In this document: positions 15,151 through 41,312 of the stretch, piece after piece
Layout of the letters: the number at the start of each line of letters is the position of its first letter
Position numbering within the stretch: position 1 is the stretch's first letter
NCBI GenBank assembly: GCA_964016885.1
Contig: OZ024762.1
Location: forward strand, 14,570,001-14,634,000
Direction: 5' to 3'
Length of the DNA stretch: 64,000 nt
DNA from: Eledone cirrhosa
Lineage: Eukaryota
Program-made: the position numbers and the translations under genes
The notes under the pieces: model-generated
What the model was told of the DNA's origin: nothing
Database searches by the model: none
The model's input: the letters and a program-made list of their open reading frames with translations, nothing else

Positions 15151-15315
15151 TAACAGAATATAGTTAACACCATCTTCTTTCAGTTTCAGTTTTCCTATTT
15201 GGTTCTAAATCCTTTACTGTCATATTAATGTATTGTATGTATGTACGGGCATGTAACTCCTGACAGAGTCGTAGGGGTGTCGTGTTGAAATACGGCGTTT
15301 CTTGGACATGTTAAA

Positions 15316-15439
15316 CCTGGTGGGGCCCATCCGTCTCCAGGCCTGACCTGGTGGGGCCCATCCGTCTCCAGGCCTGACCTGGTGGGGCCCATCCCTCTCC
15401 AGGCCTGACCTAGTGGGGCCCACCCCTCTCCAGGCCTGA
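15316..15439. repeat. 31-bp minisatellite, 4 copies
   Basis: acctggtggggcccatccgtctccaggcctg. Confidence 0.9.
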
Positions 15440-16099
15440 GTAGAGCAGATTTCTTCCAGAGAAAGATAGAAAGTGAGAAAGAAATGGTAAAGAGATATAG
15501 AGAAAGAATCGACCCCAGTACTAGACTGGTACTTTTTGAACCTGGTGGAGCTCATCCCTCTTCAGGTTTTAACAGCCAATTTCCTTGAGAGAGAGAGCTG
15601 GTGAGAGAGAGAGAGGACGAGCGTGAAAGAGAGGAAATGAGAAAGAGATATAGAGGAAGAATCAACCCCAGTATTAGACTGGTACTTTTTTTTTATCGCC
15701 TTCGAAAGGATGAAAAGCAAAGTTGACCTCGGTGGGATTTGAACTCAGAGTAGAGAGCCGGAACGAACACCATAAAGTATTCTATCTGACGTTCTAACGA
15801 CTCTGCCGATTCACCGAGTCTTATAAATGATGATAGATCAATAAAGTGAGAGATCAAAGATTGGTGATTGATCAATCATTGATTGGATTAATAAATAATT
15901 TAGAAATCAATAAAATGAATTAGATAGATGGTTAAGATGGGAAGTTTGATAATGAATCGTTTAATGAAAGATTTTTTTTTATTTTATCACATCTTTTCTA
16001 TTCGTGATTATTAAACAAAAAAAAATCATTCAACGTTCAGGGTGATCGAAGTGTGCTGAGTGATTGTGATTGAGTGGAATTACCTGATCAGATTATTAA

Positions 16100-16790
16100 T
16101 AGATTAATAGAATAGCACACACATGATTTGATAAATGGATCGATAAATGGTATTGAATAATAAATACAATAAATACGATACAATAAGACACATATGATTG
16201 ATAAACGGATCGATAAATGGTATTGAATAATAAATACAATAAATACGATATAATAGCACATATTGATAAACTGATAGATGGATCGATAAATGGTATTGAA
16301 TAAATACAATAAATACGATACAATAACATGAGTGGTTTGATAAATCGATTAATGTTATTAGATAACACGAATGGTTAGACTGACGGTTGGATAAACGGAT
16401 AGATGGATCGATAAACAGATTGATGGATCGATAAATGTTATTGGATAAACAAAATAGAATAAGGATGGTTAGATGAATCGATAAACAGACTGATGGATCG
16501 ATATAAATGTTATTGGATAAATAAAATAAAATAACACGAATGGTTAGGTTGATGGTACGGGTAGATGGATCGATAAATGTTATTAGGTAATTAAAATGAC
16601 ACGGGTGGTTAGATTGATGATAGGGTAAACGGGTAGATGGATCGATAAAACATTGATAAATTGATGTTGATGATTGTTTTGATAAACGAATCGATAGATC
16701 GATAATTTTATTGGATAAAATAAAATAAAATGACAAGGATGGTTTGATAAATGAATTGATGGATCATTAGATCGATAATTGCTATTTGAT
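16100..16790. repeat. Degenerate minisatellite built on gatggatcgataaa
   Basis: Repeated ggatcgataaatg(g/t)tatt blocks. Confidence 0.75.
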
Positions 16791-16809
16791 AAACAATGAA
16801 ATGAAATAA

Positions 16810-17026
16810 TAGTTTCTTATATAGGCACAAGGCCAGCAATTTTGGGGGAGGGGAAAGTTGATTAACTCGACCCCAGTGCGTGACTGGTACTTTATTTTAT
16901 CGACCCCGTAAGGATGAAAGGCAAAGTTAACCTCGGCGGGATTTGAACTCAGATCATAAAGGGCCGTAACTCTATGCCGCTAAGCATGGTGTCCGACGCT
17001 CTACCGATTCTGCCAATCTACCACCC
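16810..17026 (-). mobile_element. tRNA-related SINE, family B (representative; about 17 copies in the window)
   Basis: Head TGGCAG(A/T)ATCGG ... GAGTTCAAATCC; body gcctttcatccttacggggtcgataaaataaagtaccag; tail gctggccttgtgcc. Other copies near 12.6, 13.8, 15.7, 20.2, 22.5, 22.7, 29.0, 30.0, 30.3, 31.6, 40.6, 45.7, 55.9, 58.9, 60.5 and 60.7 kb. Confidence 0.85.
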
Positions 17027-17274
17027 AGTGAAATAATAAAATAACATAGGGTTGGTTCCATGGCTGAACGGATGGATGTAAGACAATTATTAAAACTGCA
17101 AAAAATAAAATAGTTTATTGTTGATGTTGGTGTTGTTGTTGTTGTTGTTGTAGTCAGTACTAGATGACGACAGTAGTGATGATGTTGTTGTTGTTGTTGT
17201 TGTTGTTGTTGTAGTAGTTGGTACGTATGGGACTAGGTGACGACAATGCTTGCTGTTGCTGAGCATTCCACAGG

Positions 17275-17337
17275 GTGGATGAGTATGATCTAGTCATGAC
17301 TAACTATCATCCACATGGACCAGAAACATATTCAACC
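17275..17337 (-). ncRNA. mir-279: miR-279 family microRNA precursor; mature 3p UGACUAGAUCAUACUCAUCCA(C) at 17296-17275
   Basis: Seed GACUAGA. 5p arm GGUUGAAUAUGUUUCUGGUCCAUG pairs with CAUGACUAGAUCAUACUCAUCC. 15-nt loop. Basal stem UUCCUUAGCGUGG/CCACCCUGUGGAA. Apical UGUG, basal UG at about -15/-14, and CNNC (CAAC) about 17 nt downstream. Confidence 0.88.
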
Positions 17338-17762
17338 ACGCTAAGGAAAACATGGCGGTGGCTGTGGGCGGACAGGCGCAGGGGGAGGGGGGTTACAACA
17401 ATAAACCCCCCTCTCATTCTCACACACACAAACAAACACAAAAGTTTTTGAAATATTTTTTTTTTATAATTTTCTGATTTGATTTGTTATATTTTTTTTT
17501 ATTCAGTTTCCTTCGATGGTCTATTTTTTTTTTTTCTTTTTAAAGAATTATTTTTTTTATGAATACAAAGATGAAAAAAATTTATTTATTAAATAAAATA
17601 AAATAAAATAAAATAAAATTAAATTCTAAAATAAATAAATTTAATTAATAAGAAAAATAGATATAAATAAACGCCCACGAAATAACGCCACACACCTCAC
17701 ACCTGTGTGTAATTAGCCGTTTTTTTCCCCTTCTAAAATAAATTAATATATATATAAATATG

Positions 17763-19086: not shown

Positions 19087-20439
19087 ACTACCACAGTTAC
19101 TACTACTGCTACCATTCACTGAATAGGACAGAGGCTGAGAGAATCAAGAAAAAGCTGAAGGCAGTGGGGTGTGAGAAAAACAGAAGGGAGAAAAGAAAAG
19201 AAAGAAAATTAGACAAATGGGTGAGGTGTGGGGACGTAGGGGGAGTTGGGGACTGGGCTTGAATAGACGACGATTGAAATCGTTTTGCAGGAGGACCTGA
19301 AATCACCTGAGTGTTTCACCTGAACTGATGAAATAGATATGATTAAACACACCGGAAATAGTTTGGGGGAGGGGGGTCAGGAAAGGAAAAGGGGTATCCT
19401 CATTCACTCCATCTTTACACCCTTGACTATCTTCCCATCATCATATCTCACTCATGCTGTGGGACCTCCGTCGGTTTTCGACGACGAGTGCCCCAGTTGT
19501 TTGAACAAAGGAACCAGCCTGTTCCTGAAATTTTAAAATAAATTTTTACAAAGTTTTTTTTTTTTTAAACGGTCGAGTATCCCGTAGTAACACGTGACCC
19601 ACCCATATTGTAGCCCCCACAACAGTCAAGAGTCACTTGGGGGTAACCTTACTCATATTACACACACACCACTTCCACTACTACCAAAACTACCACTATT
19701 AGCACTACCACACCAGTTCTAACAACAACTATGTCACCCCTGACCGCAACAAGCACCACCCGACCACCCCAGTTATAAATAACAACAACAACAACTATCA
19801 CCACACAAGCACCTTAGGCATAACAACAACCACCCGACTATCTCAGTTATTTATACTCACAACAACCACCACAGTTATAACTAATACACAATAACCCGAG
19901 TTATAACTACAACACAACCACCCGACCACCACGTACATCAATTATGATCATAACTACCACCTGACCATCGCCGTTTAATAACCACAACCAGCAGCTGACC
20001 ACCCTAGTTGTAACCACGACAACCGTCTCTATCATAATCCTGAAATCTACCCAACCATCCCAAATACCACAATTTAAATACATACCCCTCTTATGTACTT
20101 TATCAAATTCTAATCATAATTAATTGTTTCTACTTTAGGCACAAGGTCAGCGGCCAGAATTACCCAGTGCATTACTGGTACTTTATTTTATCGACCCCAT
20201 AAGGATGAAAGGCAAAGTCAACCTCGGCGGGATTTGAACTCAGTTCGTAAAGGGACGTAACTATGCTGGAAAGCATGGCGTCCGACCCTCCACCGATACT
20301 GCCAAATCATAATTAATGAAAGAAAAGTTCTTGAAGGAGTTTACTAGGTTGATAAAGTTTAAGCAAATCTATTTCCCATGCCAGATTTCATCCAGCCGTA
20401 GAAACCAAGTGCGCTGTCAACACTAAATCGATCGTATTA

Positions 20440-26495: not shown

Positions 26496-26674
26496 TTTTA
26501 ATATAGAAGAGCTTCTACAGGACTAGAACTGTTTCATTCGTGTGAACCTGATGATTTCTCACGATTGAAACAGTTCTAGTCCTGTAGAAGCTCTTCTATA
26601 TTAAAACTTTTATACTCTGCAATGTATTGAGTACTTTACTTACTGTGGTTACCTCCGATTCAACCCGGAATAAC
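26494..26674 (+). mobile_element. Asymmetric fold-back with hammerhead core at the inversion junction; same family as 23380, 27227-27414 and 52349-52533
   Basis: ttttaatatagaagagcttctacaggactagaactgtttca ... CTGATGA tttctcacgatt GAAA cagttctagtcctgtagaagctcttctatattaaaa. Confidence 0.8.
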
Positions 26675-41088: not shown

Positions 41089-41312
41089 TAAAGTTAAATA
41101 AAAGTCAAATGATTAAAATTTAGCTTCGTTTATTACTGCTATATATATTTCAGTGACAGCCATCTTTGGCTGTGACCTCTTCAGGTAGTTTGAATTAGTA
41201 TCTAATTCAAACTGCCTGAAGAGGTCACAGCCAAAGATGGCTGTCACTGAAATATATATAGCAGTAATAAACGAAGCTAAATTTTAATCATTTGACTTTT
41301 ATTTAACTTTAT
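41089..41312. mobile_element. 220-bp fold-back element with hammerheads in both arms
   Basis: Arms differ at one visible position; axis at ~41200. One-sided extension to ~40985. (TA)n on both sides. Confidence 0.85.
41211..41265 (+). ncRNA. Minimal type I hammerhead ribozyme (clearest example)
   Basis: ACTGC-CTGAAGA-GGTcACAGCCA aaga TGGCTGTcACT-GAAA-TATATA-TA-GCAGT. Predicted cleavage after 41260. Confidence 0.85.

Follow-up and report, generated by a model that had tools for sequence, protein, structure and literature searches.

A single-copy miR-279 gene, most likely the octopus Mir-279 ortholog, with a variant mature sequence

Introduction

The minus strand of positions 17264-17350 very probably holds a single-copy miR-279 gene, most likely the ortholog of octopus Mir-279, whose mature sequence is a lineage variant. 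Positions are those of the window, the whole 64-kb stretch of DNA analysed, which is C23:14570001-14634000 of an assembly of 2.996 Gb in 1,796 contigs. The reading is built on features observed directly, namely the sequence, its fold, its match to the family, its occurrence as one copy, its conservation in a second species and a compensatory base pair. An earlier note had placed a miR-279 hairpin on the minus strand here, and the family, strand, arm and coordinates it gave all stand up to the sequence, the match to Rfam family RF00754 and a folding z-score of -3.39.

Structure of the hairpin

Around the hairpin the minus strand reads ...GTCATGACTAGATCATACTCATCCACCC..., and in a longer reading ...GCGTGGTTGAATATGTTTCTGGTCCATGTGGATGATAGTTAGTCATGACTAGATCATACTCATCCACCCTGTGG.... 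The 3' arm, TGACTAGATCATACTCATCCA, has its first base at 17296, where it opens with UGACUAGA; the mature string runs from 17296 to 17276, and the GACUAGA seed occupies mature positions 2-8. The features of the locus are as follows.

17264..17350, minus strand: pri-miRNA hairpin of the miR-279 family (lower stem, duplex and loop), from the RF00754 match and the fold
17276..17296, minus strand: predicted mature 3p miRNA of 21 nt, which may reach 17275, from the sequence, the alignment to the mollusc 22-mer and the fold read with the 2-nt overhang rule
17314..17336, minus strand: predicted 5p (star) strand of 23 nt, placed by homology to bgl-miR-279-5p and 2-nt overhangs on the fold
17297..17313, minus strand: terminal loop region between the predicted Dicer cuts, from the fold and the sequence
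17265..17352, minus strand: block conserved in a second species (organism B), from contigs of runs X7 (202 nt) and X6 (697 nt)
17255..17258, minus strand: CAAC, a motif of the CNNC type, 17-18 nt past the predicted Drosha cut on the 3' side

The segment 17358-17256 (103 nt) forms a single long, imperfect hairpin whose minimum free energy (MFE) is -33.4 kcal/mol, and none of 200 dinucleotide shuffles of this segment folded equally well. The 87-nt hairpin at 17264-17350 has an MFE of -29.3 kcal/mol and a hairpin-pair probability of 0.97, and the mean probability lies at 0.97-0.99 in contexts of 63, 87 and 103 nt. In contexts of 136-221 nt the MFE structure is a different fold, in which the mature arm is paired, at its 3' end, to the loop region, and the probability of the hairpin pairs drops to 0.18-0.28. 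As a modelled result, this competing fold counts against the miRNA-hairpin reading. Competing folds are frequent when long flanks are folded in silico. A further feature of the long-context fold (17200-17420, minus strand) is a strong G/C stem that lies a little way upstream, at about 17390-17420; this tract matches very-high-depth contigs of organism B and is therefore repeat or low-complexity sequence.

The three processing motifs named in the earlier note are present: UG at 17352-17351, UGUG at 17315-17312, where it spans the 5' edge of the loop, and the CNNC-type motif at 17258-17255. The UG sits 1-2 nt further out than expected for human pri-miRNAs, and the expected positions of all three motifs stem from vertebrate work. 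Being short, the motifs carry little weight as evidence.

Family membership

The Rfam family mir-279 (RF00754) matches the minus strand at 17264-17350 over the full length of its model (positions 1-87 of 87), with a score of 48.5 bits. The E-value is 4.4e-9 in a 401-nt search, 7e-7 across the whole window and 7.8e-6 across the whole genome; taken as a sequence match, it is significant even genome-wide. The score lies 7.5 bits below the gathering score of 56 bits, which is a curated cut-off and not a biological feature, and a search of the whole 64-kb window against Rfam at gathering thresholds gave no match. For calibration, 20 control hairpins were hand-picked from 104 environmental loci in metagenomes that match the mature-arm pattern TGACTAGATCN{2,5}ACTCATCC. 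All 20 have a sense-strand match to RF00754, with scores from 34.2 to 66.5 bits; 12 fall under 56 bits and 8 reach or exceed it, and 15 score above the 48.5 bits of the window hairpin. When the genome itself was searched with RF00754, the window hairpin was the best among the 59 scored of 283,325 first-look candidates. The one other genomic match, on C28, was rejected as a TG-rich low-complexity stretch and not a family member.

The seed by itself says little, as the seed 8-mer TGACTAGA occurs at 3 sites in the window against 2.35 expected and is thus not above chance. The other two sites were rejected as hairpins (z of +0.6 to +0.9).

The stem was examined in an alignment of the window hairpin with environmental relatives. 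Among the 104 loci, 50 distinct ones passed a filter, which asked for sufficient flanking sequence and for 5'-ward pairing at 14 or more of the first 20 mature positions and left out a tandem-repeat type. Two more, with the spacers GCA and GGGTG, were dropped by eye as not miRNA-like, so that the final alignment has 49 rows, the window and 48 environmental hairpins. Over the named 23-pair stem 86.3% of the cells are in standard pairs, a figure that the filter inflates in the mature arm by selecting for pairing there, against 29-40% when the partner is slid by 1-3 columns. Changes on both sides of a pair were counted in 77 cells against 32 +/- 4.6 in shuffles, a number reached by none of 500 shuffles; most of these double changes fall in lower-stem pairs (columns 10-15 with 96-101) that the filter did not touch. 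The window row makes 20 of the 23 stem pairs, counted on this alignment. At columns 24-87 the window has A-U where 35 rows have G-C, and four other rows, including all three with spacer CAT, also have A-U; the RF00754 model alignment likewise shows this A-U compensation. The shared stem has thus been kept through compensatory changes.

GACUAGA, which the earlier note took to define the miR-279 family, is given as the family seed in PMC4238352, where the ancestral mir-279 locus is described as intergenic and found throughout protostomes. In the supplementary table of MirGeneDB 3.0, which gives family names only, MIR-279 is placed under Protostomia. The Drosophila mir-279/mir-996 cluster and mir-286 (RF00754; PMC4238352) belong to this seed family of protostome origin. 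Whereas Drosophila mir-279 and mir-996 are clustered, the window has no second miRNA-family match on unique sequence. Consistent with the intergenic ancestral locus of PMC4238352, nothing coding-like was seen in the 15 ORFs of the 64 kb that were scanned.

In flies, miR-279 functions in olfactory neuron fate and circadian output, roles that are not transferable to the gene described here.

Surroundings of the locus

Some 290 nt of unique sequence hold the hairpin; the repeats around this stretch are a (TTG)n run, an A-rich tract, SINE copies and a minisatellite of 70 bp. This bears out the earlier description of the locus as an island of unique sequence. Also in agreement is the view that it is the only recognisable host gene in the 64 kb, as judged from the Rfam scan at the gathering score, a tRNA scan that found no tRNA genes in the window, and a Pfam search. 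The latter covered 15 ORFs picked by eye from the 75 stop-to-stop ORFs of at least 110 aa in the window; no family exceeded its cut-off, and there were two sub-threshold matches.

Two further sub-threshold matches to miRNA families were rejected. The mir-999 match at 41162-41238 (48.5 bits) is a multi-copy fold-back repeat. This near-perfect fold-back (also 41145-41255) is flanked by TA repeats. The 40 candidates scored in the genome gave at least 84 matches, often to one arm only, and the element resembles a terminal inverted repeat such as that of a DNA transposon or MITE. The mir-974 match at 26504-26598 (52.9 bits) is a long inverted repeat of a multi-copy fold-back family with at least 80 genomic matches at 83-95% identity. 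The many matches to mir-297, mir-466 and similar families in the window are taken to be simple repeats, judged from the family names and their clustering.

Elsewhere in the window there are a tandem repeat with a 31-bp unit and a minisatellite with a unit of about 70-73 bp, at 15284-15438 and 16104-16800. A SINE-like element containing GGGATTTGAACTCAGA is present in three copies (15668-15767, 16872-16971 and 20163-20262), and its words reach depths of up to millions in DNA-type runs.

The mature sequence and the canonical mollusc form

The canonical mollusc 22-mer, ugacuagauccacacucaucca, is printed in PMC3972184 for a small RNA of the blood clam Tegillarca (Tgr-nmiR-39), and in PMC7328434 as Biomphalaria bgl-miR-279-3p, with 0 mismatches to limpet lgi-miR-279. 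It is the very lophotrochozoan sequence with which the earlier note had compared the mature arm. PMC7328434 also reports Biomphalaria 3p read counts of 50,935 and 35,566 and a 5p strand of 23 nt, and pearl-oyster primers in PMC6627748 fit both ends of the canonical 22-mer.

Compared with ugacuagauccacacucaucca, the window 3p has a single C where the canonical form has the central CC (positions 10-11), and it has U in place of C13, the rest being unchanged. The alignment thus holds 1 gap and 1 substitution, exactly the one deletion and one substitution first noted, and 19-20 of the 21 aligned positions are identical. The seed, the first 10 bases and the last 8-mer ACUCAUCC plus A are common to the window and to lgi-miR-279, bgl-miR-279-3p and Tgr-nmiR-39. 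So are the location on the 3' arm and the 5p end ...UCUGGUxCAUG: the 5p arm ends ...UCUGGUCCAUG in the window and ...ucuggugcaug in bgl-miR-279-5p. The canonical 3p is 22 nt long, whereas the predicted 3p of the window has 21 nt.

The two changes differ in how common they are. The U that replaces C13 pairs with an A on the 5' arm, and A-U occurs at that pair in other aligned rows, so that the C-to-U change is unremarkable and the shortened spacer is the unusual part. Among the 104 environmental matches, hairpins are formed by 57 of 63 loci with a 3-base spacer, 17 of 22 with 4 bases, 4 of 16 with 5 bases (a dubious tandem type) and none of 3 with 2 bases. The 2-base spacer of the window therefore occurs in 0 of the 78 hairpin-forming loci. 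The exact 20-mer of the window has 0 matches in the metagenome collection, and the mature string and its 16-nt prefix are absent from the full texts searched, supplements being outside the scope of that search. By sequence comparison, the mature strand is most likely a derived lineage variant of the bivalve and gastropod form.

Conservation in a second species

The hairpin is found again in a second species, organism B. Its contigs match 17265-17352 with 1 differing letter and 0 gaps and then continue unlike the window on both sides, so that 87 of the 88 bases of the hairpin block are kept while the flanks are unalignable. The sources are a 202-nt contig from X7, a DNA-type run, where the match ends loosely at 17265, and a 697-nt contig at depth 16 from X6, a run presumed to be RNA on the strength of an automated label. 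The hairpin is thus conserved in one other species. Since the match is gapless, organism B shares the deletion; its single difference may fall in the mature arm.

A second contig of organism B (X7), 209 nt long, matches only 17293-17345. With 4 differences it follows the 5' arm and the loop and goes four bases into the 3' arm, where it departs from the window within the seed; a partial duplicate in decay, or a branch of the assembly, may account for it.

Contigs of organism A reproduce 17226-17515 with 0 differences, and the assembly is therefore sound here. Runs X1, X2 and X4, in which nearly all bins are covered at a depth of about 4-5 in the unique parts, were set aside as evidence of expression because they look like DNA of the same species. 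Runs X5, X9, X10 and the metatranscriptomes X15-X20 match only A-rich or G/C-rich low-complexity sequence at 17402-17500 and are uninformative on the hairpin.

Copy number and orthology

The hairpin is single copy, with 1 match in the 3.0-Gb genome; a repeat-borne fold-back (a MITE or TIR hairpin) would be expected in many genomic copies. The pattern TGACTAGATCN{2,5}ACTCATC, which catches the canonical form too, occurs at this locus only, and its reversed control occurs 0 times; this pattern search of the genome found no canonical-type miR-279 copy. More permissive searches combined the seed with a complementary 5' arm. With TCTGGT there were 30 genomic matches against 937 in the reversed-pattern control, and with TCTAGT there were 157 against 198. 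Folding was carried out for 61 pattern instances, covering all 30 TCTGGT matches and 29 loci from the 157 TCTAGT matches, and the window locus was the only one that is miRNA-like with a miR-279-type 3' half. The remaining folded instances were rejected as paralogs, being at chance level or members of one interspersed repeat.

In octopus the family is already catalogued as Ovu-Mir-279 and Obi-Mir-279 (MirGeneDB; Zolotarov et al. 2022, PMC9699675), with the 3p as the counted arm and apparently in a single copy. According to table S4 of that paper, one O. vulgaris library, from the posterior salivary gland, covers Ovu-Mir-279_3p with 3,363 reads, and the multi-copy families listed there carry -P or -o suffixes whereas Ovu-Mir-279 has none. 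The coverage in this row indicates that the 3p arm is expressed in octopus. We take an unsuffixed MirGeneDB name to mean that O. vulgaris has a single gene. No miR-279 sequence is contained in the supplementary PDF of PMC9699675, and a literature search with supplements outside its scope found no paper joining miR-279 to octopus or cephalopod microRNA.

The lack of a canonical copy in the genome, the gapless 88-nt block in organism B and the single unsuffixed Mir-279 of O. vulgaris together lead us to read the gene, at the level of sequence, as most likely the ortholog of the catalogued octopus Mir-279 carrying a lineage variant, and not a paralog. The earlier note had left the choice between lineage variant and paralog open; the former is the better supported on these grounds.

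Other seed-bearing and repeated sequences in the genome

An interspersed repeat of about 430 bp contains a hairpin, close to a palindrome, in which the 3' arm starts with the miR-279 seed 9-mer TGACTAGATAAATTTTATCTGG. This repeat accounts for most of the 157 TCTAGT-arm matches, with copies at loci L147, L150, L154, L159, L164-L173 and others, for example C1:100190088-100190124, and the L150 copy folds at -28.0 kcal/mol for 87 nt. The seed match of this repeat may be due to chance, or its hairpin may yield small RNAs that share the seed. The seed 8-mer also occurs once per unit in a tandem or dispersed array of TCTAGTCTCACCTTATTGCAGATGACTAGA, which is present at least 14 times over about 68 kb at C5:42303666-42371721.

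The molluscan hemocyanin beta-sandwich domain has 39 genomic matches, mostly in open frames of about 420-480 aa with one functional unit each. Copies lie at C26:21.93-22.02 Mb (an inverted pair), at C1:173.74-173.91 Mb (about three in tandem) and at C27:61-68 kb, and some units contain stop codons. The C1 unit scores 854.9 bits to PDB 1js8_A, 738.3 bits to 4yd9_C and at most 488 bits to gastropod-type units; the C26 unit scores about equally to 1js8_A (650.2 bits) and 4yd9_C (658.9 bits). We take 1js8 to be an octopus hemocyanin unit and 4yd9 to be squid hemocyanin. On that footing the host is probably a coleoid cephalopod and most likely an octopod, hence of the group in which Mir-279 is already catalogued.

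Alternative explanations

The gene could instead be a lineage-specific paralog with a neofunctionalised 3' half, comparable to insect mir-996, the true ortholog lying elsewhere or having been lost. The departure of the mature sequence from the bivalve and gastropod form would suit such an origin, as would the duplication and divergence for which the arthropod miR-279 family is known (PMC4238352), and the search for divergent members was partial, with 59 of the 283,325 candidates scored and 29 loci of the 157 TCTAGT matches folded. Set against this, the genome is without a canonical-type copy, no other of the 61 folded instances has a miR-279-type 3' half, the Mir-279 of O. vulgaris is single and unsuffixed beside suffixed multi-copy families (PMC9699675), and 19-20 of 21 aligned mature positions are retained. 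We consider a paralog quite unlikely. It is less likely still that the locus is a relic, a conserved hairpin that is no longer processed, or a chance hairpin that happens to contain the seed. The sub-cut-off RF00754 score, the competing fold in longer contexts and the chance frequency of the seed 8-mer all point that way, yet they are outweighed by a genome-wide E-value of 7.8e-6 and by the retention of 87 of 88 bases in organism B beside unalignable flanks. The compensatory A-U pair and the 20 of 23 family stem pairs also speak against this reading, and 12 of the 20 environmental hairpins matching the mature-arm pattern are likewise under the cut-off.

Least probable of all, and to our mind scarcely credible, is that the plus strand or both strands are transcribed, with an antisense miRNA as a product, as happens at miRNA loci that are bidirectional. 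When folded, the plus strand reaches -31.5 kcal/mol, nearly as good a value as that of the minus strand, and it has a weak match to RF00754 (22.3 bits). The opposite strand, however, folds well at nearly all miRNA loci, 7 of the 20 control loci also have weak opposite-strand RF00754 matches (32.7-39.4 bits), and the family mature sequence is on the minus strand only.

Predicted processing and significance

On the preferred reading of the locus as the octopus Mir-279 ortholog, we infer its transcription, cut sites, choice of arm, targets and the effect of the deletion from what is known of the family. The locus would be transcribed from the minus strand within a longer pri-miRNA. Drosha would be expected to cut near 17337/17336 and 17276/17275, and Dicer near 17314 and 17296. 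The 21-nt 3p strand (17296-17276) would then be loaded into Argonaute and would repress mRNAs through the unchanged GACUAGA seed. The deletion takes one base out of the spacer that separates the seed from the 3' half, and any 3'-supplementary pairing would accordingly be shifted in register.

A bolder extension of the ortholog reading, which we think doubtful, is that the octopod lineage fixed the 1-base deletion, giving a spacer without match in 78 hairpin-forming environmental relatives, together with the compensated C-to-U change, and that the shift in supplementary register re-tunes the targets of the miRNA.

What has been found is an ordinary, expected and deeply conserved miRNA gene in an otherwise repeat-filled 64 kb, with the gain of exact coordinates for annotation. 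The family was already catalogued in octopus, and the change seen here is modest, lineage-specific and outside the seed. If the re-tuning of targets were true, it would be a rare non-seed remodelling of a protostome-wide miRNA, in an animal group known for miRNA expansion. If the change proves to be octopod- or cephalopod-wide, it would provide a clean marker, and also a small natural experiment on how far an old miRNA tolerates change outside its seed.
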